Positions 4,534 to 58,679 of a stretch of 58,757 nt of DNA are shown one piece after another. Every line of letters begins with the position of its first letter. Position 1 is the stretch's first letter. Source of the DNA: a virus (Duplodnaviria; Caudoviricetes); the IMG/VR virus record IMGVR_UViG_3300046697_000245, positions 1 through 58,757 of that record; one strand, given 5' to 3'. A program made the position numbers and the translations under genes. The notes under the pieces are model-generated. The model had not been told where the DNA came from. It made no database searches and saw nothing but the letters and a program-made list of their open reading frames with translations.

Positions 4534-7500
4534 CTAGTACTCAATCCCCGCCTTGTCCAGCCGCGCCATCAGGCCGTCGGCGGCGGCGGCGCGCTTTTCC
4601 CCCACTTCCTTGATTGAATTCGTACCTTTTGTCTGCATAATCTTTTTCATTTCCTCTTTCTCGCCGGCATCGGCCCGCTTCCAAATCTCCAGCGCATCAT
4701 CCATTCCCAGATGGTCTACATCATACTGCAATGCTGTCATGCCGGCGCGTTTAACAATTGTCTCAAACTCGCTGTCAGTCCATTTTCCCGCACCTAATTC
4801 TTTCTGGGCTTCATCTGGCCAGCTTGACGTATCCGCGCCCACAGCGCCGGCTTTGCGCAGTTTCATGACCTCTTGCACAATCCGTCGCGACTCCGCCTGT
4901 TTATCCTCATCCTGCGGCTTGTCGGGGATATTGGCTATCCTCATCTTTGCCGCCTGGCGCTCCAGCGGCGTTCTGTAATTGTTCATCTGCAAACCCATGG
5001 CGGTAAAGAACCCATCCACCAGCCCCTCGCTCGACGTGTTCAGAACTTTTTGCACCGGGATCGGCGTACTCTGCTTTGCATAGTTTTTGAAAAAGCTGCT
5101 CTTGGTCTCCTGCCGGCCAAAGTTGTCTCTCCCTGTAATGAACTCGATAGTTGGCCTGACCGTCACCGGATTCAGACGGTTGTAACCCCACTCCACGGGG
5201 TCGGTGATCAGCCCGGCAATATCACCATACACTGTGCGCAGACTGATGCGTTTTCCACCCATAACCGATCCCCAGCGTTCCGGCGTCACCACAGCAAAAG
5301 CATCTTCCGGCTTCCAGTATCCTCCAGCCATTCCCTTGTCATGATTGATTGCCGCATTGACAATGCGGCAAGTCGCATACATCAGCACCGCGCCTCGAAT
5401 CAAGGCTAATCTCTGTTCCCCTCCATATTTTGAGAAGCCCTGCGCCACAAACTGCGCGCGCGCCTTGGTAAAGTCCGGGCTGAAAGTAAGCAGATGCTCG
5501 GCAGCTTTCCAGGTTCTTCCGCTCATAAAATCCAGATGCCGGAAAAACGCCGGATCCTGGCCGCTGAAAGCCGCATTGGTCTGGCTGGCGCTCATTGCGT
5601 GAATCTCATCCGGCGTCATCTTCGCCGCGTGTCCGGGCCTCACTCCGCCGTAGCGGTTCATGTTGCGATCGTCAATGATTTTGTAAGCCTTACCCTTGAG
5701 CCGCGGAATCCAGTCGCGGAAGAGATAACGCTTGTAACTCTGCATTCCCGGCAATCCGCTCAGCACTCCCTCCGGGTCAATGTGCAGCAGTTCCAGTCCA
5801 TGCTTCACGCCCTCCAGCACCTGCTGGTCTTTTGCCAGCACCTTCAAATCCGGCACGCTGAATGGATTGATAAAGTGATCGAGCGCATGGGTTCCTAACT
5901 GCACCTGATGGAAGCCGCTGCCGTAGAGAATTGCTCCCTTCACCTTTGCTCCCGCTGTTTGAGTCCCTCTCAGACCAGCTTTCATTACATTCACCGCGGC
6001 ATGTTCCGAGGGTGTCTTCAACCAGCTCTCCGCCAGCAGGTCGCTGATCCGCCCGGCATAATCCTTGTGAATCAGCAGGTCGCCGCGCATGGCCGCCCTC
6101 TTATCAGCGGGCACGGGAAAGTGTGTATCCTCCGGGCCAAAGAGCTTGCCTTGCTCGGTTTCGCTCATCTTGTCGTAGCCCGGCACCAGCATTTTGCGAT
6201 CAGCCTCCGTCATCTCCCACTCAAAGTTCTTGAGCTGGCTATAGGGCAGACGCACATAGTCGTTCATATCCAGTGGCCGTTTCGGCTGTTGCACAATGCG
6301 AGCATCGCCACTTGCATCCTTGTCCAGCATCGTCCAGCCCGCCCGCGACTCCAGCACGGCGATGGGCTTCAACTTCTCATGCTGATTCAGGTAATCCAAC
6401 ACCTCTTTTATCGCCGTCTCCTGGGTCTGGCCTTTGTTCGTAAACAGCGTGTCTTCCGGGCCTTTCACGTACCACATATCCTTGCCGTCGTCATCCTTGA
6501 GGCTGATGGGTTCAAAGCCCGTGGGCAGTTCCGTGTAGACCTTCGGCTTCTCCACCGTCCCGGTTAGCAGACTCTTGACAAAGCCGCGAGTCATAAATGC
6601 TTTTGTGAAGGAGTCGTGATACGCGCTCAGAATCTTGCCCGCATCCATCGTCTTGGGGTCTTCGCCATGCGCCAGCGCCTCAAAGAAGTTTGGCCAAACA
6701 CGTTCTTTCAGAAAGCCGGGGCTGGGCGCCAGTTCGCTCAGGCTGGCCGCCGCACGGATATTCCCCAGCATCGCCGGGTCACTGGCATACATGTGCATGG
6801 CATAGTGGCTGGCTCCGGCGGGCAGCAGCCCAGCATCAATGAGAATCTTGAGTTGTTGATCGAAGTAATCCCGATGCGCCGCCGCCACCGCTTTCTGTTC
6901 CGGCGTGAGGCGTAGCGCGTCTCTGAAGTCTTGCAGCCGTTTCTGCGCGGCGGGATTGGCCATGTGCCTGACTTCTGCCGCCCACCGCTTCAGTTCCTGC
7001 TCATCTTTGGCTTCGCTAAAAACGGTGATGGCGTTGCGCTCGCGCTCGCTGGGCGCAACGCGCTTCAACTCCTTCTGATAGGTGTCCACATCCATTGCGG
7101 ATTTGAACTCGGCGCCGCGCAGGTCACCCAGGTTCTTGAAGTAATCAGTCCACGGCGCGGGCTTGCTCCAACTGCTCCATGCACCAACGGAAGCGCCATG
7201 CACGGCGCCCAGGGCGCCTTGCAGTTTGGTGCGGCCTGTACCAAACGCATCCCGGCCGGCATCCGAGGCGGCGGTCACGCGCTCTTTCATGGTCATGGAG
7301 CGTTTAGGCAGCTTGGCCAGTTCGCTGATTGCATCTTCCAGCGCATGGCTGGTATCCAGCTTCGACGGTGTAGCGCCGGCCTCCCGGCCGGCTGTCGCGC
7401 GGGCGGCCTCGCCAGCGCGCTGAAACATCGGAAAGCCTTGCTGCATCGCGCTCTGGCGCATCGCGTCGGTCACCGGCAGGTAGGGCACGGTCATATCCGG

Positions 7501-10500
7501 TCCAGCTAAGTGAGTTTTGTATTCCTCGGCTGCCATTTTTGCTTGGTCCATCCTAAACACTGAGTTTGATCCGAAGAATTTAACAGGGGACCCGTCGGCA
7601 TCTTGGACTTCATATCCATTGCCAACCTGTTCAACCTTCAGCTTTGCGTGATCGCCGAGTCGCGTCTCCCCCACCCGCGCGCTCTTCAAAAACCATGTCG
7701 GCGCCTTGTCCAGGTCTGACCACTGATCGCTGATAGCTGAAAGCTGTTTTTGAAACAGGCTCGCCATCCCCCCCGCTTCCGTCCCGGCAAACAGCGGCGA
7801 CTCCCGCTCCATCCGCCCCGCCGCTCCGCTGATGCTCGGCCTGGGCGCAAGCAGCCGGTCAGAGAGTTGCAATCCCGTCTCTGAGAGGTTTCTGGCTTGA
7901 GCCACGTGCCGTAGTCTGATATGTTCTTCGAGCCGCTCTATATCTGCATCAAGTCGGTCTAATTCATCGTTGGCGCGGGCGAATTGTGCGGTGCCCTCAG
8001 GTGCGGCGGAGTACGCTCTAGCGGCTTTATCATGCTGCGTGTGCAAATCGGCAAGCTCTGCATCTAATGCGGTAACCGCCTCGCGTTCCCGCACAGCGCC
8101 CTCAAAGCCCGGCAGCGCCACCGCCTCACCCTGCAACGGCACAAACCCAGCGCGGCGCGCCCGCATCCGCTGGAAAAACCCGCTCCGCGCCGCCGGCACT
8201 TGCTGATCGCTGACGGCTGACGGCGGACGGCTGCTCTTCAGTTCACCTTCCTTCGCGCCCGCTCGCGCAGCACCTCGTTCATCACCTTTTGCCGTGGGTC
8301 GTGTTCCGGCGCCAGGCTCACGTGATACTCGCCCGGTTTCAGCGGCGGCATCTCCCGCAAATGCTTTGCCGCTATCTGGTCGAACTCTTTCTCGTGCTTC
8401 CGGTTCAGCGCCTCCCGGAATGCGCTGGTCATACTCCCTGCCATAGTCTGCCCCTTTCAGTTCATCAATAATCCGTTGCATCGACCGCTCCACCGGCGGC
8501 ATATCATCCAAAATCTCCGGCCCAAATTCATCCACAGCCGCCGTCAGAAAAGCGTGTGCCACGTCGACACGCTCCGCTTCAGTTGCATCCAGCGCCGGGT
8601 CGCCGGCCAGCGGTTTGGCCAGCAGCTCATGAGCCATCTCCCATTGCGCCGCCGCCGGATCGCCGGCGCCATACCCCAACTTACGCAGCCGCGCGGCCAT
8701 CTCCGCCACCTCAGGCCGGGTGGCAATCTCTCGCATGGCGTCGGAGTTCATTAGCTCATGCCGGATTGCCCAGCCGTGCCAGGCCTCCTCGCGCGCCGTG
8801 TCGTCGCGATAGTCGCCGCGCAGCACCGTGGTCAGCCCATCCTCACCCTTGGCCGCCGCCAGCGCCTTCGCCATCCGGTCGTAACCGTCCGCCGCCGTGT
8901 TCCGCCCATCCTTGCGCGCGGCGGCCGCCGCCTCCCGCATGATTGCCGCGCCTGTCCGGCTCACATGTTCCGGCAGCGTCATGCCCAGCCAGTCCTGCCC
9001 CGCGCCCAACGGGTTCCGTCCGGCGCTATCCGTCATCTTCGCAAAGGCCCGATGCCACAGCACCGCCGAATCCGCATCCAGCGCCACCGCCCGCCGCCCC
9101 GCCGCGTCTACCGCCTCCGGCCGCGCCGCCACCGCATTCTCATGCAGCCCGCGCCCCTTCGCCGCATCCTTGGCCTTGGTGAAGCGTGCAATCCGCAAAA
9201 CCTCAGACTCGCCGGCAGAGCGGGGACTCGGAACTCTGTTCCCTGCTTCGCCGGCATTTCTAACTCCTCCAGCCGCACTAACACTGCCCGTGCGGCCAGC
9301 ATCAGTATACGCCACATCCTGCGAACGCGCCACGGCTTCGCCGCCAGGCGGCATGGCAGGCGAGGTTGCTCCGGATGGTTCGGCTTTGCGCAGCGTGCCA
9401 TCCAAATCCACCAGAATAGGCTTGCCTTCATCGCCGGGGTTAGTGGTATGGCTTAATATGCGGCCAGTGTTGTGTTCCACATTTGAACTGTCGTCGTAGA
9501 TAGCCCCGTCTCCGGCATCCTTCACGTCAGTGATCGGCAGGCTCACCCCAAACTGCTCGCGGATTGCCGCATCAACGGCGCGGCGGTTGGCTTCGACCGG
9601 CTCCCTGCTGATGCGCCGCGTAAATATCTTTACGGGCAAACCTTTATCAATCCGCTCACGCACCAGTTTGGCAATGTCTCCGTCGATAGGCGCCCCTATC
9701 GGCGGCACTGTAGAGCCGGCATCCCCGCCCGCCGCCTGCTTCTCCGGCCACCGCACATACTTTGCGGGAATGTCGCGCAACGTGCTGCCGTCGGCAAGGT
9801 CCACACGGACCAATCCCGGTATTCCGTTCGTGGGCCTTGAGTAATGCCGCGCGGTGCCGCTCACCCAGCTTCCGTCTACCTTATTGCGCACCTCAACAGG
9901 CAACGCAATCTTGTTGGTCTGCCCGTTTGGAGGCCGCCATTCTACCTCTGCGGCTGGGGCGCTTCCGCTTCCGGCTGTGGTTGGGGCTGTAGGTCTGGGC
10001 GCTCCGGCTGGCTGGACTGGTCCGGCTGAAGCGCGAACCTCTCCTGCATTTCCTCTGGATGCGCCAGCGCCCACTGCACCGCGTCCCGCGCCCGCTGCTT
10101 GCTGGGGCTGACCCGCCGCGGCGAGCGTATCCGATTGGTTGAGGTCTGCAATGCCATGATGGAACTCCTCGTCTGTCAGTGTACTCCCAAATGCGTGATT
10201 GAAGGCGTCAAAAGCCTCTCCCCCGCCAAACATTCTTGTTGCGCCCGGCAGGTTCTGCTTCGCGTCTGTAGCAAAGTTCTGAAAGCGCGTCCTGACCGCA
10301 TTCGGCTTTTCGTCCAACACCTTTACCAGCGCGTCGACAACCGGATTCCGGCCCGGCCCAAAGATGCTTCGCTGGTTCACCGTCAGTTCTACCGTCGAGC
10401 CGTTCCGGGCAATCGTCGTGTGCTCAGCCACCGCGCGCAGCAGCGCCGGCCTAACCGCATAAATCAGGTTCCACTCATCCGGCCTCGAGCCAATCGCCGA

Positions 10501-13500
10501 GATCGACCCCAGGCTCTTCTCGATCTTGTCCTTGATCGACTTCGGCGCCGCGTCCAGCAGACGTGAATCGTTAAAGACCGACCCCATCATCGCCCGTTCA
10601 ATAAAGGTTTTGCCCTCTTCGCTCAGCGACTTGCCATCGGATTCAAGGTACTGCGGACGCTCCCGCTCGGTCAGCGCGCCGTCCTGCACCATCATCTGCA
10701 ATATCTCCGGGCCCTTGCGACCCAGCACCTCGCGCAGGCTGCTGTCATCCTCATTCTGCATCGCGCTCACGGTTTGCAGGGTCTCCGGCTTCAACTTCTT
10801 CCCGGCGCTCACCGCCCGCTCGCTCACGCCCAGCGCCCCGGTCATATTCTTGTTCAGCTCAGAGCCGATCCGCTGCGCCTCGTCCAGGCTGGCTGGCCGG
10901 TCAATCTGCCGCACCAGCACCGGATATTTCATGCCGACGACCTGCTCCGGCGTCAGGCCATAAGCCGCCGCATCCCGTCTCAAGGCGTCTCGATACGTCC
11001 CACCCCGGCCCTCAGCGTAAACCCGCTGCGTGCTCATTGCCCGCGAGTTGCCGCCCAGCACAGTCCCGTCCGGCGTAATCACCGGCGGGCCGTTCACCGC
11101 GTCCGGGTTGGTATTCACCGTGTAGGCCGGGTCGTAGTTTTGCGCCTGGTCGATCACCCGGTTCTGCGCCTCTTTGCTGCGCTTGTAATCCCGCTCCTGC
11201 ACACCGGCGGGGTACTCCGGATTCGGTTCAAAGCTCTGCGCATGATGGCTGGGTGCAAGGTCGCTCGCCTCTACCAGCCGATAGATCCCCGGCAGCTTCC
11301 GGGTCGGCGTCAGCACCTCCGTCGGCCGCCCATCGTGCCCGCCCACCGCCGGGCGCACAGGCAGTTTCTCCGGTTCCCTGACCGGCTGAACGTCAGGCGT
11401 TAAGTTGGCTGGCGGCTGCGCTTGCGGCCTCGGATTCCCCAGCATCGTTTGCTCGGCGCTGTCCTGCAACACCGCGCGCCCCTGATTCTCCGGCTGCTGA
11501 CCGCTGACCGCTGACGGCTGCGCTTTCTTGTGAATCTCCTCAATCTGCTTCCCCAGCCGGTCCGCCTCCGCCTGATCGCCGCGCGCCAGAGCCTCTTTCT
11601 GCTTCTCGTAGAGCGGGTCAGTCTCCTTCATCGCGTCGGCCTGGCCCTTGGGAACCACCTGCAACTCGCTGACCTGATTCGCCTCGCCCGCCGCGCCGGT
11701 CCGCACACCATACTGGTCCGCCTGCAACCCGTTCGAAGTGATCTTGTCGCGGCTCTCCACCGGCAACTGCTGCTCGACGTTCTGCCGCACGGCGGCCAGC
11801 GCCTCCGGCGTCTCCGCGCTCACCCGCGCCCCCAGATGGTCGATATTCGTCTCGGATGGCTTGCCGCGCGCTGCCTTGTTGGCCTGGCTCTCAGCATCCT
11901 TGACGCGGCTGCCCTCCACCTGCGCTCCCGGCACCCCGGCCACCGCCTGCTCCGCCATGCCTTGCAGCTTCGGCTCCTGCTCCGTCGCCGATGCGCGTAT
12001 CTCCGCCGGCTCCGCGCTCCCCTGCACCACCGGCCGCTCCGCCTCCGGCTGACCGCTGACGGCTGACGGCTGCTCCACCGTTTCACGTGGAACGCCCGCC
12101 GGCGCGGCCAACTCACCAGCCACAAGCCGTACAGGAGCCGGCACCGGAGCCACTGGAGCTTCACCACCGCCTGCCCGCCGCCCGCCAACCGTCAGCGACG
12201 CCGTGGGTCGTCCAGGCACCACCACACTGCCCTCTTCAGGGCTGTAAGAACCTTCCGGACCCGGCGCACGATAAGCTGGGCGGTAACCGGCACGCGCCTC
12301 GACCGGCCCCACACCTACGCGCACACCGCGCTCGCCGTAAGCTCCGGTGTAGCCTTTTCCCTTTGCGCCGAGACCACCGCCCAAAATGGCTCCCACATCT
12401 CCCGCCAGAGCCACGGTGTTAGCACTGGCTCCAATGGTTTGAGCGGCTTTGCTCGCCACCAGGCTGCCAATCGTTCCAAAAACCAGAACCGACGCCGTTA
12501 CTGGAGCATTTATAGCGGCGCCCGCTGCCATGGCCGGCTTGCCAAACGTCTCCATCGCTCCACTGACCGCCTGATGCGCGCCGCCTTCTCGCTCATCAAA
12601 GCTACGCGGGCGAATGCCCTTTCCGGCCAGTACGCGTACTACACCATCCGCTTCCAACTCAGGATACATTGCCGAGACCTTGGCGTAGGCGTCTCCGTAA
12701 TCCTGATCGGTCAACACTCGCATCCCGGCATCGAGGTTCTTTAAGCCTTCAATCGGATGGTAGGGAAGATCGATATGCTCTTCACGCGCAATCCGTGCGG
12801 CCTCGCTCTCGGTCGGTTCCAGGTGCAGCCCGCTAGATACCCCAGGAGCCATATCTTGCAGCGTGTGTCCGGCTTGGCTGTTAGCAAGCCACTCCCGCGC
12901 TTGCTCCAGCTTGCCCTGCTCCGGCGCGGCGCTCAGTTCTGCCTGCTCATGCCCGCGGCCAATCACCGGCGCGGATGGCACCAGTTGCGGCCCACCCTGG
13001 GCTGGCTCTAACGGCACCGCTGGCGCGGGCGTGGGCTTGAATGCATCTTGTGTGCCCAGCGCGGCGCGCGTCCTCTGCTGCAACTCCTCAGCGGCATTCT
13101 GCGGCACGGCCTTTTGCGGGTTCACAAAGGCGCTGGAGGTCATCTTGCTCTGGTCTGCCGGTCGCTGCGCGGGCGCGGGCATCAACTGCAGCCCCTGCCG
13201 CACCATCGGCGGCCGTGCGCGATCGATGGCTTCAACGCCGTAAAGCTGGCCCAGACTGCTCGCCGCTCCCGGCTGTGCCCCAGCCAAAGGCGCGGGCGGC
13301 GCTGTTGGCGCGCTCGGCGTGGCCACGGCCTGTGGTCCTGCGGTCGGCGTCGGCGCGGGAACTGGCGCGGGTGGTGCTTTCGTTTTTAGTGAAGCGATGT
13401 AAGTAGCATACGGATCATCCGCCGGCGTTGGCGGCGTTGGCGGCGCTTTCGTTTTCAGTGAAGCGATGTAGGCAGCATACGGATCTTGCGGTGGCGGCAT

Positions 13501-13572
13501 CCCGCCTGGGGGCGCATTGCTTGCCGTAACTGGTTGTACCGAAGCGTCCACTGTGCCCCCCTTGACTTTCAA
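4534..13572 (-). CDS. Giant (~3000 aa) polyvalent internal-virion/ejection protein: RelA/SpoT-like, DdrB-type ParB-like, SH3/Tudor-like, permuted HAD and zincin-like domains
   Basis: Last of three ejection-type ORFs. Motifs: SRVK...S...K, DHLGARV, ELQ; YRLVEASDL.PSH...QERDY...GPPV...G.VLGGNSR; DLDGTL; EEAWH. Real start is probably GTG at 13551 (SD AAGGGGG). Confidence 0.8.
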   Translation of the reverse strand: MKVKGGTVDASVQPVTASNAPPGGMPPPQDPYAAYIASLKTKAPPTPPTPADDPYATYIASLKTKAPPAPVPAPTPTAGPQAVATPSAPTAPPAPLAGAQPGAASSLGQLYGVEAIDRARPPMVRQGLQLMPAPAQRPADQSKMTSSAFVNPQKAVPQNAAEELQQRTRAALGTQDAFKPTPAPAVPLEPAQGGPQLVPSAPVIGRGHEQAELSAAPEQGKLEQAREWLANSQAGHTLQDMAPGVSSGLHLEPTESEAARIAREEHIDLPYHPIEGLKNLDAGMRVLTDQDYGDAYAKVSAMYPELEADGVVRVLAGKGIRPRSFDEREGGAHQAVSGAMETFGKPAMAAGAAINAPVTASVLVFGTIGSLVASKAAQTIGASANTVALAGDVGAILGGGLGAKGKGYTGAYGERGVRVGVGPVEARAGYRPAYRAPGPEGSYSPEEGSVVVPGRPTASLTVGGRRAGGGEAPVAPVPAPVRLVAGELAAPAGVPRETVEQPSAVSGQPEAERPVVQGSAEPAEIRASATEQEPKLQGMAEQAVAGVPGAQVEGSRVKDAESQANKAARGKPSETNIDHLGARVSAETPEALAAVRQNVEQQLPVESRDKITSNGLQADQYGVRTGAAGEANQVSELQVVPKGQADAMKETDPLYEKQKEALARGDQAEADRLGKQIEEIHKKAQPSAVSGQQPENQGRAVLQDSAEQTMLGNPRPQAQPPANLTPDVQPVREPEKLPVRPAVGGHDGRPTEVLTPTRKLPGIYRLVEASDLAPSHHAQSFEPNPEYPAGVQERDYKRSKEAQNRVIDQAQNYDPAYTVNTNPDAVNGPPVITPDGTVLGGNSRAMSTQRVYAEGRGGTYRDALRRDAAAYGLTPEQVVGMKYPVLVRQIDRPASLDEAQRIGSELNKNMTGALGVSERAVSAGKKLKPETLQTVSAMQNEDDSSLREVLGRKGPEILQMMVQDGALTERERPQYLESDGKSLSEEGKTFIERAMMGSVFNDSRLLDAAPKSIKDKIEKSLGSISAIGSRPDEWNLIYAVRPALLRAVAEHTTIARNGSTVELTVNQRSIFGPGRNPVVDALVKVLDEKPNAVRTRFQNFATDAKQNLPGATRMFGGGEAFDAFNHAFGSTLTDEEFHHGIADLNQSDTLAAAGQPQQAAGAGRGAVGAGASRGNAGEVRASAGPVQPAGAPRPTAPTTAGSGSAPAAEVEWRPPNGQTNKIALPVEVRNKVDGSWVSGTARHYSRPTNGIPGLVRVDLADGSTLRDIPAKYVRWPEKQAAGGDAGSTVPPIGAPIDGDIAKLVRERIDKGLPVKIFTRRISREPVEANRRAVDAAIREQFGVSLPITDVKDAGDGAIYDDSSNVEHNTGRILSHTTNPGDEGKPILVDLDGTLRKAEPSGATSPAMPPGGEAVARSQDVAYTDAGRTGSVSAAGGVRNAGEAGNRVPSPRSAGESEVLRIARFTKAKDAAKGRGLHENAVAARPEAVDAAGRRAVALDADSAVLWHRAFAKMTDSAGRNPLGAGQDWLGMTLPEHVSRTGAAIMREAAAAARKDGRNTAADGYDRMAKALAAAKGEDGLTTVLRGDYRDDTAREEAWHGWAIRHELMNSDAMREIATRPEVAEMAARLRKLGYGAGDPAAAQWEMAHELLAKPLAGDPALDATEAERVDVAHAFLTAAVDEFGPEILDDMPPVERSMQRIIDELKGADYGREYDQRIPGGAEPEARERVRPDSGKAFAGDAAAETGRVSREPGAGTRPTAKGDERGAARAGAKEGELKSSRPPSAVSDQQVPAARSGFFQRMRARRAGFVPLQGEAVALPGFEGAVREREAVTALDAELADLHTQHDKAARAYSAAPEGTAQFARANDELDRLDADIERLEEHIRLRHVAQARNLSETGLQLSDRLLAPRPSISGAAGRMERESPLFAGTEAGGMASLFQKQLSAISDQWSDLDKAPTWFLKSARVGETRLGDHAKLKVEQVGNGYEVQDADGSPVKFFGSNSVFRMDQAKMAAEEYKTHLAGPDMTVPYLPVTDAMRQSAMQQGFPMFQRAGEAARATAGREAGATPSKLDTSHALEDAISELAKLPKRSMTMKERVTAASDAGRDAFGTGRTKLQGALGAVHGASVGAWSSWSKPAPWTDYFKNLGDLRGAEFKSAMDVDTYQKELKRVAPSERERNAITVFSEAKDEQELKRWAAEVRHMANPAAQKRLQDFRDALRLTPEQKAVAAAHRDYFDQQLKILIDAGLLPAGASHYAMHMYASDPAMLGNIRAAASLSELAPSPGFLKERVWPNFFEALAHGEDPKTMDAGKILSAYHDSFTKAFMTRGFVKSLLTGTVEKPKVYTELPTGFEPISLKDDDGKDMWYVKGPEDTLFTNKGQTQETAIKEVLDYLNQHEKLKPIAVLESRAGWTMLDKDASGDARIVQQPKRPLDMNDYVRLPYSQLKNFEWEMTEADRKMLVPGYDKMSETEQGKLFGPEDTHFPVPADKRAAMRGDLLIHKDYAGRISDLLAESWLKTPSEHAAVNVMKAGLRGTQTAGAKVKGAILYGSGFHQVQLGTHALDHFINPFSVPDLKVLAKDQQVLEGVKHGLELLHIDPEGVLSGLPGMQSYKRYLFRDWIPRLKGKAYKIIDDRNMNRYGGVRPGHAAKMTPDEIHAMSASQTNAAFSGQDPAFFRHLDFMSGRTWKAAEHLLTFSPDFTKARAQFVAQGFSKYGGEQRLALIRGAVLMYATCRIVNAAINHDKGMAGGYWKPEDAFAVVTPERWGSVMGGKRISLRTVYGDIAGLITDPVEWGYNRLNPVTVRPTIEFITGRDNFGRQETKSSFFKNYAKQSTPIPVQKVLNTSSEGLVDGFFTAMGLQMNNYRTPLERQAAKMRIANIPDKPQDEDKQAESRRIVQEVMKLRKAGAVGADTSSWPDEAQKELGAGKWTDSEFETIVKRAGMTALQYDVDHLGMDDALEIWKRADAGEKEEMKKIMQTKGTNSIKEVGEKRAAAADGLMARLDKAGIEY
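12079..12094. promoter_or_regulatory. parS-like palindrome inside the giant gene
   Basis: CGTTTCACGTGGAACG matches the 14-bp core of the widespread chromosomal parS consensus TGTTNCACGTGAAACA. Confidence 0.7.
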
Positions 13573-42691: not shown

Positions 42692-42724
42692 ATTTTGACC
42701 ACAGGCGAGGATTGTTTGTCAAGA
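42692..42724 (-). promoter_or_regulatory. Probable late-operon promoter region
   Basis: TCTTGACAAACAATCC is identical to 2039-2054; the best -10 candidate (CAAAAT) is at 19-bp spacing. Confidence 0.5.
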
Positions 42725-42732
42725 GAATAATT

Positions 42733-43376
42733 TTAGAGGCCTATTTCAAGCCACGCTTCGATGAACGCTTGCGCCGCTGGGAGACAGATTGCGTCGCCGT
42801 ACAGGCGAAGCCGTCCCACTCGGGCGGGACTCCCATGAGCCAACGGCTGTATGCCGGGTCCAGTTGGCCGCCACTTGCCGTCGCGGCCGTACCACCAATC
42901 GCAGTCGGCCCAGAAGCCGCGAGTTGCGCCTGCCTCGGCAACTGATCGAGCCGCGAGCGGGTCGAGCCATCCAGGTCTGTGCAAACAAGGTCGAGCCAGC
43001 CATGTCCAATCGCGGCAGCAACCTGCTCTCCAAAGAGGCTTGCAGGGCGGCGCTCGCGGATGAGCCGTGCCCATTCAGGCCAGAGGTGACGAGGATCTGC
43101 AAACCCTTCCCCTTTGCCCGCTGCGCTAAAGCTGGGGCAGGGACAGCTTCCCGTCCACACGGGCCGGTCGTCGGGCCATCCGGCGTCGCGCAGGGCGCGG
43201 CTCCAGAATCCTCCGCCGGCAAAGAAGTGGCATTGGGTATATCCCACAAGCTCTGCTGCTTTGACATCGGCAATGCTCCTCTCATCCACGTCGCCGGGCG
43301 CAATCGCGCCGGCCTTGATCGCCTCGCGGATCACCTCGGCCTTGAATGGATCGATCTCGTTGTAGTAAGCCGTCAT
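42733..43376 (-). pseudogene. C5-cytosine DNA methyltransferase, internally deleted and frameshifted, with remnants of an overprinted ORF
   Basis: AYYNEID, HFFAG.G, GSCPC..FS, FGEQV are in one frame; FW...DW...RDGK.RP...GRLRLYGDAI are in another; motif VIII is absent. Confidence 0.7.
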
Positions 43377-43383
43377 AGTTCGC

Positions 43384-44559
43384 TCAGTCCCTGGTCCCGA
43401 GGCCCTTGATCTTCGCCGCCCAGGCCTCCAGCATCTCGCGCCGCTCAGCCGCGTAGGCTGCTCGATTGTACACCCCGCGCACCCCGCCAATCTCGTGCCC
43501 TAACGCCTTTTCCACCACCTCAGCCTTCCATCCCGCCTCGGTCAGCAGCGTCGACGCCGTGCGCCTCAAGTCATGCACCGTGAAGTGCTCCACATGCGCC
43601 GCCCGCGCCACCTTGGCCAGCGTCCGGTTCAGCGCCCCAGCCCACAGCGGCCACGTCAAAGCCTCCCGGCCAGGCAACACCATCTCCACCCGCGGCCCCT
43701 GCATCGCGCGCAACTCCCGCAAACACTCCAGCGATCCATCGCTCAGCGGCACCAGCATCTCCCGGCCCATCTTCGTCCGCCCCGCCGGTATCACCCACTC
43801 CGCCCGCTTCAAATCTACCTCCACCCAGCGCGCCAGCCGCAACTCGCTCTTGCGCACCATCGTCAGCAAAAGCAGCCGGATCGCGTGCCTGTGCGCCTCC
43901 GGAACATTGCGTAATTTCTGCTTGAGTGCTCTTAATACCCGCCTCAGCTCTTCCTCGCTCAGCGCCCGATCGCGCGCCTTGCGCCGCGCCACATAGCGCA
44001 GCGGAGTGGATATTGCCGGGTTGCTGTCGGCCACGCCGCAGACCATCGCATAATCCCAAACCCGCTTGCACAGGCCGCGCAACTTGGCCGCCGCCGCCGG
44101 CCTGCCCGCTTCCAGCTTCCCAAAGATCAACGCCTGCAGCTCCCGCGCCGTCACCTTGTCCATCGGCCGCGCGCCCAGCCGCCGCACAATCTCCCGCTCC
44201 AGCGGCCTGCGCACCGCCGCCATATCCTTGCGCGCCCCGCGAGCTTCCAGGTTCTTCAGGTAGCGCGCCGCAAACTCCTTCACCGTCACCCTGGCCCCGT
44301 AGCCCTGCCGCCGCGCCTGCTCCACGCTGCGCGGATCCTCACCCTGAGCCAACGCCTCCGCCAACTCCCGCGCCCGCTCCCGCGCCGCCGCCAGCGTCAT
44401 CGCCGGGTAGGCGCCCAGCGTGATTCTGGTTGGCTGACTGCTGGCGGCTGACTGCTGGCTGCTGTACCTCCACCGCCAACTCTTTCTCCCCGTAGGCATT
44501 ACCTCCATCTCCAAGCCTTCGCCAAAACCCTGAGTATAGCGGCTCTCGCGAGTCTTCAA
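43384..44559 (-). CDS. int: Tyrosine recombinase/integrase, P4-like with arm-binding domain
   Basis: G.GL...V...G.KSW..RY, ITLG.YP...LA.AR; catalytic R (VRKSE), K (TKMG), HDLRRT, LGH, YN. Confidence 0.93.
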   Translation of the reverse strand: MKTRESRYTQGFGEGLEMEVMPTGRKSWRWRYSSQQSAASSQPTRITLGAYPAMTLAAARERARELAEALAQGEDPRSVEQARRQGYGARVTVKEFAARYLKNLEARGARKDMAAVRRPLEREIVRRLGARPMDKVTARELQALIFGKLEAGRPAAAAKLRGLCKRVWDYAMVCGVADSNPAISTPLRYVARRKARDRALSEEELRRVLRALKQKLRNVPEAHRHAIRLLLLTMVRKSELRLARWVEVDLKRAEWVIPAGRTKMGREMLVPLSDGSLECLRELRAMQGPRVEMVLPGREALTWPLWAGALNRTLAKVARAAHVEHFTVHDLRRTASTLLTEAGWKAEVVEKALGHEIGGVRGVYNRAAYAAERREMLEAWAAKIKGLGTRD

Positions 44560-44741
44560 TTCTGCCGGGTTTGGATACCTCTTGTTAATTTAACTATCCC
44601 CTTTCCTATAAGGTTTTCCCCTTAAAATCCAGCGGCCAGCGGGCGGTGGCCAACCCTCAGACCTTCCGGGCATTTGACCGACAACCGACAACTGGCAACT
44701 GTGACCCGCGCGGCCCTCCGGCGGCGCCCACGTCCACCGGC

Positions 44742-44870
44742 ATGTCCACAGCGGAACAGTTTTTGACTATAACACACGTTCCACGTGAAACATCATCTCT
44801 CCCATAAGAGAATATCGCCTCTGTTGATAAATAAAAGAAGTTGTCCACACCTTCCACAACTTTTTCCACA
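44742..44870. promoter_or_regulatory. DnaA-box cluster in the int/early divergent region
   Basis: TTTTCCACA 44862-70 (perfect TTWTNCACA), TTGTCCACA 44841-49, CCTTCCACA 44850-58, TGTTGATAA 44822-30, ATGTCCACA 44742-50. Confidence 0.7.
44777..44792. promoter_or_regulatory. parS site, chromosomal type
   Basis: CGTTCCACGTGAAACA, 15/16 to TGTTNCACGTGAAACA, intergenic. Confidence 0.85.
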
Positions 44871-44878
44871 TTATTTAC

Positions 44879-44918
44879 TTGACAACATTGTCATCATTGT
44901 CGTAATGTTCATCATGTA
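44879..44918 (+). promoter_or_regulatory. Promoter of the + strand operon, overlapped by operator-like repeats
   Basis: TTGACA-18 bp-TAATGT; GACAA-CA-TTGTC palindrome; 9-bp-period repeats CATTGTCAT/CATTGTCGT/AATGTTCAT. Confidence 0.6.
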
Positions 44919-44939
44919 GTGAATCAGGAGGTTCAACCC

Positions 44940-45134
44940 ATGACCACCCGCGAACAGATGATCTCTGAGTTTCTTCGCCAGGCCGAGCGCGAGGCTGCTG
45001 GCATTGAGGAACCGATCATCGTACTGATTCCTTGCGCCATCACGGCGCCCAACTCTAACCCTTGTGTTCAAGCCGCCAGAGAGCGCGTCTACGCCCTCGA
45101 GCTTGAACTGGCCGACGCCTGCCCCTGTTGCTGA
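44940..45134 (+). CDS. Hypothetical protein (64 aa)
   Basis: SD AGGAGG; first ORF after the promoter. Confidence 0.6.
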   Translation: MTTREQMISEFLRQAEREAAGIEEPIIVLIPCAITAPNSNPCVQAARERVYALELELADACPCC

Positions 45135-45146
45135 AAGAAGATAGCT

Positions 45147-45479
45147 ATGCCGCCGCTGCCCGATTCCAATATCCACGCCAACCTGCTCAAGCGCATCGCC
45201 GATGCGGAGACGCTGCTGGTCTCCCTCAGGCACAGCGTCCGCGCCCTGCGCAATGATGTTTTGCTGGCCAGCAATGCCGGCGCAGCGCACGATGACGGCG
45301 GGGCCGCTCCAGCCAGCAATGAAATCCAGAGCCTGGCTGTAATTGAAAAGGCTTGCATCCTGAATGCTCTGGCCGCCTGCAAAGGCAACGCCTTTAAAGC
45401 CGCCGCCCGGCTGGGCATCGGCAAAACCACCCTCTACCGCAAACTCAAAGAGTACGCGGCTGAGGATTCACACATCTAA
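45147..45479 (+). CDS. Fis/NtrC-type HTH DNA-binding protein
   Basis: EK..I.NAL....GN..KAA.RLGIGKTTLYRKLKEY. Confidence 0.9.
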   Translation: MPPLPDSNIHANLLKRIADAETLLVSLRHSVRALRNDVLLASNAGAAHDDGGAAPASNEIQSLAVIEKACILNALAACKGNAFKAAARLGIGKTTLYRKLKEYAAEDSHI

Positions 45480-49398: not shown

Positions 49399-50019
49399 TC
49401 AATTCCATAGCCGGCAGAGCCGCTCGATGCCCACAATCGCGTTGCCCGGCATCTCCATATCCGACGAACTCTCCAGCAGCTCCTCGGCGGTGCGCGAGGC
49501 CTCGCAGAATTCCTCCGTCGACCGGAAATGGAATTGGCTTTTGTGCTTTCCCGCACCCATGTTGGCGCGCCACAGCACCGGCAACTTCTTTTCCGGCAGT
49601 TGCTCCGGCTTCGCCGCGCGCGGCTGTTTATTTCCTTGCTGCCGTGTGGATACGTCAGGATGCCGCGCGGCAGGGGGTCTGTGGGCTGGAGCGCCCAGGG
49701 AACCGTTCGACTCTGGACCCTCTCCTGTATGTGCTGTTATGCTGGCCGCGGTGGCCTTCGCCGCGCGCCGCAATCTCTCTTCCCGCGTGATGTTTCCCAC
49801 TGTCTTGCTCCTCTCCGCCGGGGTCTCCGGCCCGCCAATCCCACGCTGAAGCGCAGGGCTTATTCGCTCGACTTGCTGACGGCTGCACGGTACTCCAGCG
49901 TCGCAATCAAAGCATAGATGCGTCTTGCCGCCGTTGGCGGTCACCAGGCCGGCGCAGTAGTGCCCGCGCGCCCGGCAATCGTCGCAAGCAGGAGTCGGCG
50001 CCGCGATCACCTGGCCCAC
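49399..50019 (-). CDS. Hypothetical protein with Cys-rich N-terminus
   Basis: CDDC...C...C..C....C followed by a low-complexity linker. Confidence 0.6.
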   Translation of the reverse strand: MGQVIAAPTPACDDCRARGHYCAGLVTANGGKTHLCFDCDAGVPCSRQQVERISPALQRGIGGPETPAERSKTVGNITREERLRRAAKATAASITAHTGEGPESNGSLGAPAHRPPAARHPDVSTRQQGNKQPRAAKPEQLPEKKLPVLWRANMGAGKHKSQFHFRSTEEFCEASRTAEELLESSSDMEMPGNAIVGIERLCRLWN

Positions 50020-50233
50020 CAGTCCTTCACCGCCGCCAGGCTGAATCCCGCCAGCGCCAGCAGCACAACTCCAACAACAAAAACCTGTTCAGCCATGGCT
50101 CACTCCGTTGCTGTGGTCAGTGATTTTAATTCGTAAAAGCGTTCCAAAAAGGCTTGCTCCGCATTTTGAGGAGACATGGGCGTCAGGATGCCGCGCGGCA
50201 GGGGTTCTGTGGGCTGGAGCGCCCAGGGAACCG
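49653..50233. repeat. 53-bp direct repeat, 49653-49705 and 50181-50233, one mismatch
   Basis: CGTCAGGATGCCGCGCGGCAGGGG(G/T)TCTGTGGGCTGGAGCGCCCAGGGAACCG. Confidence 0.95.
50007..50096 (-). CDS. 29-aa single-TM peptide
   Basis: Manual translation MAEQVFVVGVVLLALAGFSLAAVKDWWAR; fills the gap between two genes. Confidence 0.5.
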   Translation of the reverse strand: MAEQVFVVGVVLLALAGFSLAAVKDWWAR

Positions 50234-53704: not shown

Positions 53705-53953
53705 TCAGTTGTCAGTTGAAGTTTCATGACCTGGGCATCCGTGTTTGTAATCGAATCCCTCGCAAGGTTCGCCGAGCGGTAATTTCTCATGCCCTGCGGC
53801 CAATTCGTCCATTAGTGAATTCTTGAACTCAGCTACAGAAACATAGCGCGTTCCGTCGTTCTTCGTTATACTCTTCAGATTGCGGCGCGTTTCTGCTTCA
53901 GACCAATGCAGCATTCCGCGAACAGAAATACACATATGAGTGGTTGTGCTCAT
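53705..53953 (-). CDS. Conserved-type small phage protein
   Basis: HMC.SVRG.L...L.DEL..G...LP...C..FDY..GCPGH; ATGA coupling. Confidence 0.75.
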   Translation of the reverse strand: MSTTTHMCISVRGMLHWSEAETRRNLKSITKNDGTRYVSVAEFKNSLMDELAAGHEKLPLGEPCEGFDYKHGCPGHETSTDN

Positions 53954-55140
53954 CCGCGCACCTCCGGAAAGGCCTTGTGCTCCACGCCGTCAAGCAGCGA
54001 GCCCGCGGCCTTCTTGCCGACTTTGTCCATTGCTTCCGCTTTTCCATCCCACCATTCGCCCTGCTGGCCCCATACACCATCCGGCCGCAAGAAGATGCCA
54101 CCGCCCGTGTATTTATCCCTAACCGGCTCAGACTTCGTCGGGGCCCACTCGCCCCACTGTTTGAAGAAGAAGGCCGTGCCGGCCGCCGCGCACTGATCGC
54201 GCAGACTCCGCGCCCAGTCGGGGTGCATGGGACGCGCTCCGGGGCCGCTCTCGCCGCCAGCGATCACCCAGTCGAGACCACCAGGAGTTTCCCCATTGAA
54301 GTCATGCCAATCCCACCCTGCGTACTGACCGGCTTCTGGTAACCATCGGGCTGGCACATCGACCTTCCATAAATCCAACAACCCCAGCAACGGCTCGCAA
54401 CTCACATACCGCACCGCCGCCGGCGTCTGAAGCAGCAAAGGTACGCGCTCATCCGCAGCAGTCTGATTCTCAGCCGTCACGCCCAGCCAGATGTTGGGAA
54501 GGGGCCAAGGCCGCTCGGAGCTATGGCGCCATTTCTCAGGATCGAGTCCCCCATACCCGCGCAAGGCGTTCACGAAGATAATCTCTCCGAGGCGGTTCCG
54601 TGCGGTAAGAATGTACGCCAGCATCCGCTCTGGCCGCTTGGTCAGCACCTGGAAGATATGCTGCGGGCAAAGCGCCATCACCGCGAAGATACGGTCCAGC
54701 ATCTCATCCGTCACCCACTCGGCGAAGAGGTCCGACTGGTTCTCGACAAAGATTTTGCGCGGCTGTGCGGGATCACGGCCCACCACTTTTCCAGTTTCAG
54801 CGTCATAGAGCGGCCTACCTGGCTTCCACCCCAACGGCTGCAAAAGCACCTTCTCATCCACAAACGCCTCGACCAGATCGCGGCTACGCCGATCATAGGG
54901 CAGGCCGGTGCCGTTTCCCGGCAGGCAGCGGTGGTTATTGGTCTCCGCATAGCAGTGCTCGCAGCCAAGCCAGGGGACGTGTTCGCAGTGCTGGCCCACG
55001 TGGCCGGCCATCTTCTCCGCAATTGAAACCAGCGACGTATAACCTTTGGCGCGGGCGATCTCAGCCGCGTCCGCCTTCACCCTCACCCTGATCGGTGACC
55101 AGGTGCTATCCGTCCATTCAATGCCCGTCTTAGCTCCCAT
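53950..55140 (-). CDS. Phage Gp37/Gp68 family protein (DUF5131)
   Basis: TGIEWTD.TW.P, C......GCEHCYA, IFV...SDLF, FQVLTKRPER, NIWLGV..E.Q, SCEPLL, WVI.GGESG..ARPM.P.W.RSLRDQC, FFFKQWG. Confidence 0.93.
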   Translation of the reverse strand: MGAKTGIEWTDSTWSPIRVRVKADAAEIARAKGYTSLVSIAEKMAGHVGQHCEHVPWLGCEHCYAETNNHRCLPGNGTGLPYDRRSRDLVEAFVDEKVLLQPLGWKPGRPLYDAETGKVVGRDPAQPRKIFVENQSDLFAEWVTDEMLDRIFAVMALCPQHIFQVLTKRPERMLAYILTARNRLGEIIFVNALRGYGGLDPEKWRHSSERPWPLPNIWLGVTAENQTAADERVPLLLQTPAAVRYVSCEPLLGLLDLWKVDVPARWLPEAGQYAGWDWHDFNGETPGGLDWVIAGGESGPGARPMHPDWARSLRDQCAAAGTAFFFKQWGEWAPTKSEPVRDKYTGGGIFLRPDGVWGQQGEWWDGKAEAMDKVGKKAAGSLLDGVEHKAFPEVRG

Positions 55141-55192
55141 CAACTTCCCTCCAACGCCCGCCACAAGAATCCCCTGCGGCCCTCACCCCGGT

Positions 55193-55495
55193 TATTACCG
55201 GGTAAATACCTTATATAAATACCCGTAGTAGCAGTAGTTTCCTGTGGATAAGTGGAGATTCAAGCCAAACCGTTTATTGTGAGCAATTTTGACCACCCCC
55301 AGCCTGTGCATCCTTTTGTGGATAGTTTCTGCAAAATTGGAAAACTCCACCTTATCTCCCACGTTGCGGCCATCCTTTCCACACCTTCCACACCCCCCAC
55401 CTATTCCCCCTGTGCATCCTTCGGATAACTCAGTACAAATACACCTATCTCTTACATTATTATAGGTTTTCAATCCCCTGTTTTTCCACACCCTC
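55193..55495. other. oriC-like replication origin: AT-rich tract, DnaA-trios and DnaA boxes
   Basis: TTATATAAAT 55211-20; TAG-TAG-CAG-TAG 55226-37; TGTGGATAA 55243-51; TGTGGATAG 55317-25; CTTTCCACA-CCTTCCACA 55375-92; TTTTCCACA 55482-90. Confidence 0.75.
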
Positions 55496-55831
55496 CAAGG
55501 CCGACTGCTTTTTCTCAACCCTTATATTCCAGCCGGTTTTAGGGGTCTTCTTGATGGTCAATCCGCTTTGAGATTGCCACCGGGAGACCGTGTTGCGATG
55601 CACTCCCATCCTGCGCGCCGCCACACACTGGTTTCCATTGGCACGAATCAACTCCGCCGCTAGCCACTCCCTGCGCCACATTTCCATGGCGATTTTGTAG
55701 GGGACCTTCCACTCGGTCAGGCGCCACACCACACTGCACAGCTTCTCTGTAATCTCCTCAACCTCGCCCACCACATGCCTCCATGCAGTTATCAGCCTAT
55801 GCGGCCCTGGCCGCCATCCCGAGGCCCTCAC
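55460..55831 (-). CDS. Fis-like HTH protein (real start probably downstream, ~55765)
   Basis: Y..A...W.R.....L....GNQC.AARRMGVHRNT.SR. Confidence 0.8.
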   Translation of the reverse strand: MRASGWRPGPHRLITAWRHVVGEVEEITEKLCSVVWRLTEWKVPYKIAMEMWRREWLAAELIRANGNQCVAARRMGVHRNTVSRWQSQSGLTIKKTPKTGWNIRVEKKQSALEGVEKQGIENL

Positions 55832-56999: not shown

Positions 57000-58679
57000 T
57001 TACCGGTTTTGGCTTTGCGGCGCAGACGCGGCCGCCGCCGGCGTGTAAACCGCCGCCTCGCTGGTCAGCACCAGGGCGGCAATTGACACCGCCTTCTCCA
57101 GCGCCACCCGCACCACCTTCACCGGGTCCACAATGCCACTCTCCATCAGATCCTCGTAGTGGCCCGTCGCCGCGTTCAATCCGTAACTGTCGCCCGGGGT
57201 GCTGTATTCAAGGCTTTTTTTCACCTCATCCAGCGCCACGTCAGGGCTGATGCCGGCGTTGGATGCAATCTGCCGCAGCGGGGCTTCAAGCGCCTCAATC
57301 ACCACCTCAACGCCCATCCGCGCCGCCTGGCTCATCTTCCCCAATTCATATTCACGCGCCTTGATGGCCTGCGCCGCCTTCAGCAGCGTGATGCCGCCGC
57401 CCGGCACCACCCCCTCAGCCTTGGCCGCCTTGGCGCTGTTGACCGCATCCTGCACCCGCGCCTTCGTCTCATCCAGGGCTGTGCGCGTCAGGCCGCCCAC
57501 ATGCAAAATCACCACACCCTCGCTGAGCCGCGCAATCCGCTGCGAGAGCATCTCCTTCTCAAAGTCGTCATCGGTGGCCGCGCGCAGCGTGCGCAGCTCC
57601 TCGGCCCGCTGCCGCGCCGCCTCCACAATCTCATCCTTGCCTTTGGCGGCATGTTCCACGCCCACTTCAATCAGCTCTGTCCGGTCGGGATGCACCACCG
57701 CCAGCGCGCAACTTCCCAGCTCCTTCAGGCCAAAACGAGATAGAGCGTTGCCCATATCGGGCGAGTAGACCGTTGCCCCGGTCGCCTCGGCCAGATCCCG
57801 CAGGCACTCCTTGCGCCGCGCTCCCACCCCCGGCGCCGTCACCGCGCAGCTTTGCAGCGTGCCCCGCGCCACGTTATGCACCATCATCGTCAGCGCATCG
57901 CCAGCCACCTTCTCCGCCACCACCAGCAGCGGCCGCCCCGTCGGCGCCACACACTCCAGCAGCGGCAGCAGGTTCATCGGGCTGTTCGGCGTCCTCGGGT
58001 CCGCCTGCGCAACCTCCCGCTCGCTCAGCAGGATGTAAGGCCGCTCCAACACACAGTCAGCGCCCCGGTTCACAAAGGCCGGATGCACCCAGCCCGCATC
58101 CCACTGAAAGCCCTCGCGCAACTCTGAATGCGTCTCCCGCCCCAGCGCGTCATCGATGATGACCATGCCTTCCGGCCCCACCCGCTCCACCGCGTCGGCT
58201 ATATGGCGCGCAATCTCCGCATCGCCGTGCAGGCTCACCGTAGCTGTTTGGGCAATCAGTTCCGGAGTGGCCTCTATCCGAGCCTCGGCAATGCGCTCCT
58301 GTGCCCACCCGGCAGCAACTTTCAGCCCTTCGGCCAGCTCCAGGCGATCCACCCCGCTGGCCACCAGCTGCATTCCCTTGTGCAGCATCGCCGCGGTCAG
58401 CACCACCGCCGTCGTGGTGCCGTCGCCAACGGCTTCATCGGTGGATGCCGCCACCTGCCGCAGCAGGCGCGCCCCGGCCGCCTCCAGCGGCTCCTCAGGC
58501 TCAATCTCCTTCACCACCGATACCCCATCCAGCGTCGCCCGCGGCGCCCCAAACGCACTGCAAATCAGAACGGGCCGGCCCTTGGGCCCCAATGTCGTCC
58601 GCACCGCCTCCGCCACCGTCATCACACCGCGCATCACCGCCTCGCGCGCCTCATTGCCCTTCGCTATCTTGTTTGACAT
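57000..58679 (-). CDS. groEL: Chaperonin GroEL (divergent Cpn60)
   Basis: TLGPKGR, GDGTTTA, APG.G..RK..L.DLA..TG, GVVPGGG, P.RQIA.NAG, GI.DP.KV.R.AL..A.S.A; no GGM tail. Confidence 0.95.
   Translation of the reverse strand: MSNKIAKGNEAREAVMRGVMTVAEAVRTTLGPKGRPVLICSAFGAPRATLDGVSVVKEIEPEEPLEAAGARLLRQVAASTDEAVGDGTTTAVVLTAAMLHKGMQLVASGVDRLELAEGLKVAAGWAQERIAEARIEATPELIAQTATVSLHGDAEIARHIADAVERVGPEGMVIIDDALGRETHSELREGFQWDAGWVHPAFVNRGADCVLERPYILLSEREVAQADPRTPNSPMNLLPLLECVAPTGRPLLVVAEKVAGDALTMMVHNVARGTLQSCAVTAPGVGARRKECLRDLAEATGATVYSPDMGNALSRFGLKELGSCALAVVHPDRTELIEVGVEHAAKGKDEIVEAARQRAEELRTLRAATDDDFEKEMLSQRIARLSEGVVILHVGGLTRTALDETKARVQDAVNSAKAAKAEGVVPGGGITLLKAAQAIKAREYELGKMSQAARMGVEVVIEALEAPLRQIASNAGISPDVALDEVKKSLEYSTPGDSYGLNAATGHYEDLMESGIVDPVKVVRVALEKAVSIAALVLTSEAAVYTPAAAASAPQSQNR

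Follow-up and report, generated by a model that had tools for sequence, protein, structure and literature searches.

The spacer between the integrase gene (int) and the first early gene of a temperate peat phage carries a palindrome that matches the chromosomal partition site parS, together with a cluster of DnaA-type boxes. We propose, with moderate confidence, that host ParB and host DnaA bind these spacer sites and thereby couple int and early transcription to the cell cycle of the host. Because related phages retain such sites as well, the family as a whole probably relies on chromosome-maintenance proteins of its hosts. The phage is represented by IMG/VR record IMGVR_UViG_3300046697_000245 (Duplodnaviria; Caudoviricetes), a linear sequence analyzed over its entire 58757 bp and called the window below. 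The sites exist, exceed chance expectation, are conserved and match the host-type consensus; the identity of the binders and the effect of binding are inferred from sequence comparison.

The host-type parS palindrome of the spacer, CGTTCCACGTGAAACA, lies at 44777-44792 and matches TGTTNCACGTGAAACA at 15 of 16 positions with a perfect 14-bp core, which bears out the original prediction of a 15/16 parS between int and the TTGACA element. A second copy, CGTTCCACGTGAAACG, was overlooked by that prediction; it lies on the minus strand at 12079-12094 (14/16 positions, 14-bp core again perfect), where it encodes V-P-R-E-T, residues 494-498 of a giant protein. The two copies have 15 bases in common. 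Altogether, the window contained three parS matches at two or fewer mismatches, compared with 0.07 from shuffles. The half-site GTTCCAC was weakly enriched (12 occurrences in the window; 5.9 expected), and this arm is named in PMC5961200 as the half-site recognized by Pseudomonas aeruginosa ParB. A restriction or methylase site was considered for CACGTG and rejected: the hexamer occurred nine times against 17 expected, was not limited to the parS sites and was not strongly avoided.

Conservation was assessed in a family set obtained with a degenerate DNA pattern for one family-specific peptide of TerL, the large terminase. The pattern returned 35 IMG/VR records, six of them complete with terminal repeats; members are cited below by G numbers. 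A TerL-alignment scan was rejected as a family definition, being flooded by distant marine phages at ~30% identity. TerL homologues were otherwise purely metagenomic, often on 55-72-kb contigs. The control set comprised 50 phage records (1.97 Mb, 30 complete), namely 10 distant TerL relatives and 40 records with related integrases. At one or no mismatch, the core GTTNCACGTGNAAC was found in 7/35 family records and in 5/6 complete family genomes, equal to four of five lineages (G006 and G008 are near-duplicates), and the reversed word used as a control in 1/35 family records. Among the controls, five of 50 records and four of 30 complete genomes contained the core at this threshold, mostly with a broken central CACGTG, and one core was exact. 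The difference between complete family and control genomes gave a Fisher p of 0.002, and exact cores numbered 7.9 per Mb in the family vs. 0.5 per Mb in the controls.

Within the giant gene, parS occupied a matching position in G000, G002, G003, G006/G008, G026, and G032, where it reads V-P-R-[G/E]-T. Across six genomes the 16-mer retained 87.5% pairwise identity vs. 33% for the flanks of 60 nt on either side. The valine, proline, and arginine codons GTT, CCA, and CGT were kept in 6/6, 6/6, and 5/6 genomes, respectively, with gene-wide usages of 16, 14, and 9%. Synonymous codons varied in a conserved peptide, [RK]PV[VL][QH], located 10-30 residues downstream. VPR occurs a single time in the 3012-amino-acid protein and is therefore not a repeated cleavage motif. 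Because the 16-mer outlasts its flanks, rare codons are frozen, codons of the neighboring peptide vary and VPR is unique, the comparison indicates selection on the DNA word of parS and not on the peptide alone.

Regulatory DNA also carried the site. G001 and metagenome contig L328 each have a 15/16 palindrome ~25 bp upstream of where a methylase-int operon starts, and G026 carries a second parS within a small gene that borders its early region. On this comparative evidence parS appears to be a trait of the phage family and not a chance occurrence.

Natural variants of the spacer point the same way. A 4.1-kb contig from another peat run was 97.4% identical to the window over 44300-45200; 10 differences fell in the spacer and none in 44756-44893 (p = 0.011), the invariant block that holds parS, the boxes and the -35 element. 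Two further variant contigs covering parts of 44756-44893 showed no change. Chance matches in a GC-rich phage spacer could be expected to the extent that a scan of many windows meets rare matches, and the 15-mer repeat described below is not significant. The shuffle and simulation controls, the codons frozen in the family and the invariance in natural variants nevertheless appear to bring this explanation close to refutation.

The DnaA-type boxes were scored against TTWTCCACA, and the minus-strand box against TTATCCACA. Three boxes run head to tail over 44841-44870 on the plus strand, namely TTGTCCACA from 44841 (one mismatch), CCTTCCACA from 44850 (two mismatches), and TTTTCCACA from 44862 (no mismatch); their starts are 9 and 12 bp apart and they stand directly 5' of TTGACA. 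The remaining boxes are a weak one, ATGTCCACA, on the plus strand at 44742-44750 (two mismatches), and TTATCAACA, in an AT-rich stretch of the minus strand at 44822-44830 (one mismatch to TTATCCACA). Judged as DnaA-box 9-mers (TTATCCACA or TTWTNCACA), one of the five was perfect, two had one mismatch and two had two. Throughout the window, TTATCCACA occurred 18 times at one or no mismatch (5.2 expected). Six TCCAC words on one strand within 140 bp (44733-44865) formed the densest cluster of the window, followed by 55244-55387; with six observed, none of 300 first-order Markov simulations reached even five.

The 15-mer TCCACACCTTCCACA, reported in the original prediction as shared between 44844-58 and 55378-92, is indeed identical at both places. 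This identity carries little meaning alone because the window contains 35 repeats that are at least 15 nt long. Exact scans of viral contigs with this 15-mer and with a parS 15-mer returned at least 117 and at least 128 stretches, respectively, none of them related to the window by blastn, and these matches look like background.

The box motif recurs 10 kb away in a conserved origin-like element at 55214-55490 (to about 55500), whose parts are an AT-rich run containing the 18-mer TATAAATACCCGTAGTAG, trios, a spacer, and boxes. In the window the 18-mer begins at 55214, the trios TAG TAG CAG TAG occupy 55226-55237, and a 5-nt spacer leads to TGTGGATAA at 55243-51; the further boxes include the second copy of the shared 15-mer. 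The 18-mer was exact in 8/36 records and present at one to two mismatches in two more. Within 330 bp of it, all ten loci held four to eight TCCAC/GTGGA boxes, and in 8/10 loci the order was AT-rich run, CCCG, (TAG/CAG)x4, 5-nt spacer, and TGTGGA[AT]A. PMC8287927 defines a basal unwinding system by a DnaA box, a spacer no longer than 16 bp and three or more NAN trios with the consensus 3'-GAT-5'; such an oriC-type layout, with its box, 5-nt spacer, four TAG-type NAN trios and AT-rich run, was present at 55.2 kb and absent at 44.8 kb. The origin originally predicted at 55.2 kb thus has the box-spacer-trio layout of chromosomal origins. We take its orientation to equal that at E. coli oriC. Unlike chromosomal origins, the element is flanked by phage genes and has no dnaA gene in its vicinity.

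In the origin-like regions of eight non-duplicate genomes, 17/51 TCCAC sites were perfect TTWTCCACA matches and 33/51 had at most one mismatch, compared with 0/54 and 2/54 in the rest of the same loci. Because 9-mer matches concentrate in the arrays, the recognized word appears to be the full 9-mer DnaA box and not just TCCACA.

Both sets of motifs could instead serve phage regulators: the TCCACA words and the palindrome would then be operators or iterons for the helix-turn-helix (HTH) protein encoded at 55460-55831 or the Fis-type HTH protein encoded at 45147-45479, with their likeness to DnaA boxes and parS due to convergence or mimicry. The int/early spacer is a classical place for operators, the same words stand at two control regions, and an HTH gene directly adjoins the origin-like array in G000 and G026. 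Genes flanking the box array differ between genomes, which favors a host reader over a neighboring phage HTH protein; in G002 the array stands beside other genes, and no homologue of the 55460-55831 HTH protein was detected in the 5-kb locus. Additionally, the box flanks complete the 9-mer DnaA consensus, the array has the box-spacer-trio layout, and the palindrome equals the parS of host metagenome-assembled genomes (MAGs) over 14-16 bp and is kept in a coding region far from promoters. Phage operators are thus an unlikely explanation.

The box cluster at 44.8 kb could also act on host DnaA itself, as a datA/DARS-like sink, the alternative already named in the original prediction, or as a second origin. 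A datA-type sink consists of a box cluster with an IHF site and promotes hydrolysis of DnaA-ATP. Three adjacent and further weaker boxes within 130 bp, and an AT-rich run at 44823-44840, would suit such a role. However, a single phage copy with two to five boxes would make a small sink, and the boxes abut a promoter-like -35, suggesting transcription control. Beside 44841-44870 no TAG-type trio array was found in the right orientation, that of the 55.2-kb element; the only candidate was a permissive NAN run 16 nt away. Because this array is missing beside the boxes, the 44.8-kb region was not read as a second origin, and a sink or origin function is considered quite improbable.

The divergent spacer that holds parS and the boxes extends over 380 bp (44560-44939) from int to the first early gene. 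Small minus-strand open reading frames (ORFs) over the spacer sites appear non-coding, and an Rfam search of the spacer matched no family. On the minus strand, a consensus scan placed a terminator-like hairpin followed by a T run at 44634-44655, in the interval that separates int from the site cluster. Promoter-like signals for the early operon were recognized on the plus strand at 44879-44915 by sequence reading and consensus scan. Either TTGACA at 44879-84 is paired across an 18-nt spacer with TAATGT, a poor -10, or the signal is the pair TTGTCA-16-CATCAT at 44888-44915. The first early ORF (44940-45134, plus strand) encodes 64 amino acids from an ATG at 44940 with AGGAGG 7 nt upstream, and is followed on the same strand by the gene for the Fis-type HTH protein. 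With these signals the three tandem boxes would center ~50-77 bp upstream of the transcription start, a position typical of activators.

At the other end of the spacer, int (43384-44559, minus strand, TTG start) encodes a tyrosine integrase of 391 amino acids with an arm-binding N-terminal domain (Pfam Phage_integrase, Arm-DNA-bind_3, and Phage_int_M); its alignment with a 77%-identical relative begins at residue 1. The TCCACA repeats could thus be arm-type sites of the integrase within attP, given the arm-binding domain and the frequent position of attP beside int. The same word, however, is found in the conserved array 10 kb away and far from int in relatives, and relatives whose integrases are 55-77% identical lack any TCCAC cluster close to int. 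A search of four candidate-host MAGs with the spacer for attB or host DNA turned up no attB-like match and returned only matches of 15-26 nt (best E = 0.003). Arm-type sites are accordingly a very unlikely explanation.

Relatives of the composite site were sparse. Close integrase relatives (77-83% identity) were on short contigs only. In a metagenome int scan the single close relative retained just 101 bp ahead of int, too short for comparison, and single-protein viral-contig scans with the integrase and with the Fis-type HTH protein found no relatives. Single perfect TTTTCCACA boxes were located 19-30 bp upstream of TTGACA in G002 and G003, and G001 has one TTTTCCACA box in its early spacer. 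At places comparable to the spacer, relatives carried parS or a single box and never both. The comparison suggests that a box at the early promoter recurs in the family and that the triple array beside parS is unique to this phage. As a separate observation, the closest integrase relative (L327, 77% identity) has a perfect TTATCCACA at 1326-1334, ~85 bp past the int stop codon.

Candidate hosts were suggested by TerL relatives on contigs binned into three Acidobacteriota MAGs (Terriglobales, Terracidiphilus, and "Acidobacteria bacterium") and one gammaproteobacterial MAG. All four of these MAGs, which are candidate hosts by binning only, contained tandem parS of the form TGTT[CT]CACGTG[AG]AACA, located 1.4-1.6 kb from parB in the three Acidobacteriota MAGs. 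The phage parS shows the same C/T and G/A variants as the MAG clusters, with identity over 14-16 bp. A host ParB that recognizes a different parS, raised by the original prediction as a reason to abandon its reading, was thus not what these binning-assigned hosts suggest. Separately, contig C177 of the Acidobacteria MAG G039 has two perfect DnaA boxes at a distance of 27 bp and, 18 kb away, a 15/16 parS (12431, 16290, 16317, and 34879), and may be another phage of similar kind.

A reader of parS encoded by the phage itself would be the alternative to host ParB. The original prediction had seen no parA and no canonical parB, and domain searches agreed. ParB_N (PF02195) was found in 0/4 family genomes. 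HTH_ParB (PF17762) was absent from the window, and its one sub-threshold six-frame match in G001 was not reproduced by Pfam scan. No ParA-type match appeared among the 55 window ORFs scanned in PHROGs or the ORFs scanned in Pfam. The window thus showed no parB of its own with ParB_N and HTH and no parA, as a self-encoded ParABS would have; the only related feature was a DdrB-like domain of the ParB superfamily (PF18763, E 1.8e-18) at residues 758-890 of the giant protein (about 10903-11301, minus strand). This module of the injected polyvalent protein, whose full conserved unit spans about 310 amino acids and is found in 5056 proteins, could read parS in place of host ParB, and in G000, G002, and G032 the gene that encodes it has parS 0.8-1.4 kb upstream of the module. 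However, the domain was present in only 3/36 records, the giant-gene parS is retained in G003, G006/G008, and G026, which lack the domain, and the giant protein of the window has no HTH_ParB. PMC5512222 regards the PF18763-type domain as a probable DNase, non-specific and regulated by NTP, that has no relation to partition. PDB sequence searches with the module gave no match, and a profile comparison with host ParB, itself uninformative, found nothing. Because the domain is so restricted within the family, a phage-encoded parS reader seems unlikely on present sequence data, and the DdrB-like module in particular is rated a rather improbable one.

Replication genes were likewise missing. DnaB (DnaB_C), PolA (DNA_pol_A), and Prim-Pol domains were found in none of seven near-complete genomes, and no initiator, helicase, primase or polymerase was recognized among the 55 window ORFs, in which early genes are mostly of unassigned function, so that a novel initiator is possible. 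The absence of the three domains supports the originally proposed cis-only, host-powered replicon, and the unassigned early genes qualify it.

Under the favored reading, host ParB would recognize the phage parS, load as a clamp and spread over the neighboring int and early promoters. Spreading would silence or organize that part of the phage DNA and would possibly position or segregate unintegrated genomes. Host DnaA on the three boxes would set early-operon output by the state of replication initiation, with a slight lean to activation through contact with RNA polymerase. With the same box motif at 55.2 kb, phage replication and early transcription would both be coupled to host DnaA.

Several observations weigh against this reading. 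The five DnaA-box-like 9-mers of the original prediction do form a cluster, but good matches are seen in just two of them and three are weak. Both window parS copies start with C instead of T at position 1. The early promoter is a consensus match only, with a weak -10 hexamer, and attP was not located. Hosts were assigned only by the MAG binning of phage-like contigs, and in two of the candidate host MAGs perfect boxes were two to four times commoner than a control word and did not cluster near dnaA. A ParB-superfamily domain does occur in the giant protein of G000, G002, and G032. The 18-mer origin element is absent from G001, G006, G008, and G015; the last of these, a complete genome, also has neither a parS core nor a TTWTCCACA box, and the early promoter region of G026 has no box. 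Finally, the composite of parS and three boxes was confined to the window phage and near-identical strains. The original host-type reading therefore stands as regards a parS that is kept in the family and matches MAG parS, and as regards full 9-mer boxes, but the interleaved arrangement it emphasized is not conserved.

A wider model can be offered more tentatively, as a possibility that we rate below the proposal for the spacer. Temperate peat phages of roughly 60 kb would mimic a small host chromosome, with a DnaA-fired oriC-type origin, host-type parS, one copy of it inside a virion-protein gene, through which host ParB (with ParA and/or SMC) would organize or segregate unintegrated genomes, and no initiator, helicase, polymerase or partition protein of their own. 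In the window phage, ParB and DnaA acting on the int/early switch would then let the choice between quiescence and growth follow the host replication cycle.

The remaining gene content was named with Pfam and PHROGs. The large terminase gene lies at 2103-3755 (minus strand), followed at 4534-13572 (minus strand) by the gene of the 3012-amino-acid protein, which, because of its DdrB-like ParB-superfamily domain, is assigned to the polyvalent virion proteins described in PMC5512222. The domain order of the giant protein varies among family members, and the 3897-amino-acid counterpart in G001 has a RelA/SpoT-like stretch instead (E 5e-5, under the cut-off). A C5 cytosine methylase gene at 42733-43490 (minus strand) is apparently split into two overlapping frames (249- and 113-amino-acid ORFs), both matching phrog_363; the split may reflect a frameshift, an error in sequencing or decay of the gene. 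An N6/N4 methylase gene was also named. The other assigned genes were those of a DUF5131 protein (53950-55164, minus strand), a GroEL-type chaperonin (57000-58679, minus strand; Cpn60, E 1e-67) that is kept in G002 and G026, and small HTH proteins, and the majority of the rest had no family.

The window sequence was present in peat metagenome runs; lake water, bioreactor and wetland runs contained small shares of it and did not enter the analysis. The phage is temperate and integrase-bearing, and its host is probably one of the Acidobacteriota. CheckV estimated 89% completeness. A 36-bp tandem repeat at positions 1-321 (8.9 copies, 93% identity) reaches the contig end within a minus-strand ORF; the assembly probably broke there, and the missing portion of the genome may be small. 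Minus-strand genes contain direct repeats of 24 and 28 nt at a distance of 528 bp (49653-49705 and 50181-50233). The 16-mer GGATTGTTTGTCAAGA is identical in two spacers, at 2039-2054 (after the terminase gene) and 42709-42724 (before the methylase gene), and may be a common signal.

The closest precedent is phi29, in which, according to PMC2731898, five parS sites of the host type function with host Spo0J and promoters carry boxes for host Spo0A. As in phi29 and Nf, in the account of that source, no phage ParB was found here, host-type parS sites are several and host-regulator boxes stand by early promoters; in phi29/Nf the outcome for an infecting genome is determined by proteins of the host. 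The phi29 it describes is a small, virulent, protein-primed phage of a spore-former, with parS serving prespore trapping. The present phage, unlike phi29, is about 59 kb, temperate and integrase-bearing, its hosts are probably non-sporulating Acidobacteriota, its boxes are of the DnaA type and not for Spo0A, and one parS lies in a coding region with frozen codons. In lambda, DnaA boxes near pO are protected by DnaA, and transcription is DnaA-stimulated (PMC3985674). Both phages have host DnaA sites beside phage promoters (pO and pR in lambda) near replication control. In the same account lambda differs in having its own O/P initiator and boxes downstream of pO, whereas here three tandem boxes lie upstream of a -35 and no initiator is recognizable. 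ParB of P. aeruginosa is reported to repress a promoter next to parS3/parS4 (PMC5521831), and chromosomal ParB bound at parS can thus reduce the activity of neighboring promoters; that case belongs to another phylum and a chromosomal context, in contrast to the phage promoters considered here. Our literature search found no report of temperate phages with host-type parS or of oriC-like phage origins. The centromere sites of the N15 plasmid-prophage and the KorB operators of RK2 are scattered ParB-type sites, some of them at promoters, that link partition to gene control. N15 and RK2 encode ParA and ParB homologues of their own, and none was detectable in this phage.

The codon-frozen parS illustrates clearly how a DNA site can take precedence over codon choice, and it offers a simple marker both for finding more such phages and for guessing the parS type of their hosts. 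If the proposed reading is true, a phage control region would be wired to two proteins that time and organize bacterial chromosome replication, and no repressor-operator or partition genes of the phage's own would be needed for such control. The phi29 precedent would then extend to temperate phages of slow-growing soil bacteria, and the family would offer a concrete, testable case of a phage genome that is replicated and positioned like a host minichromosome.

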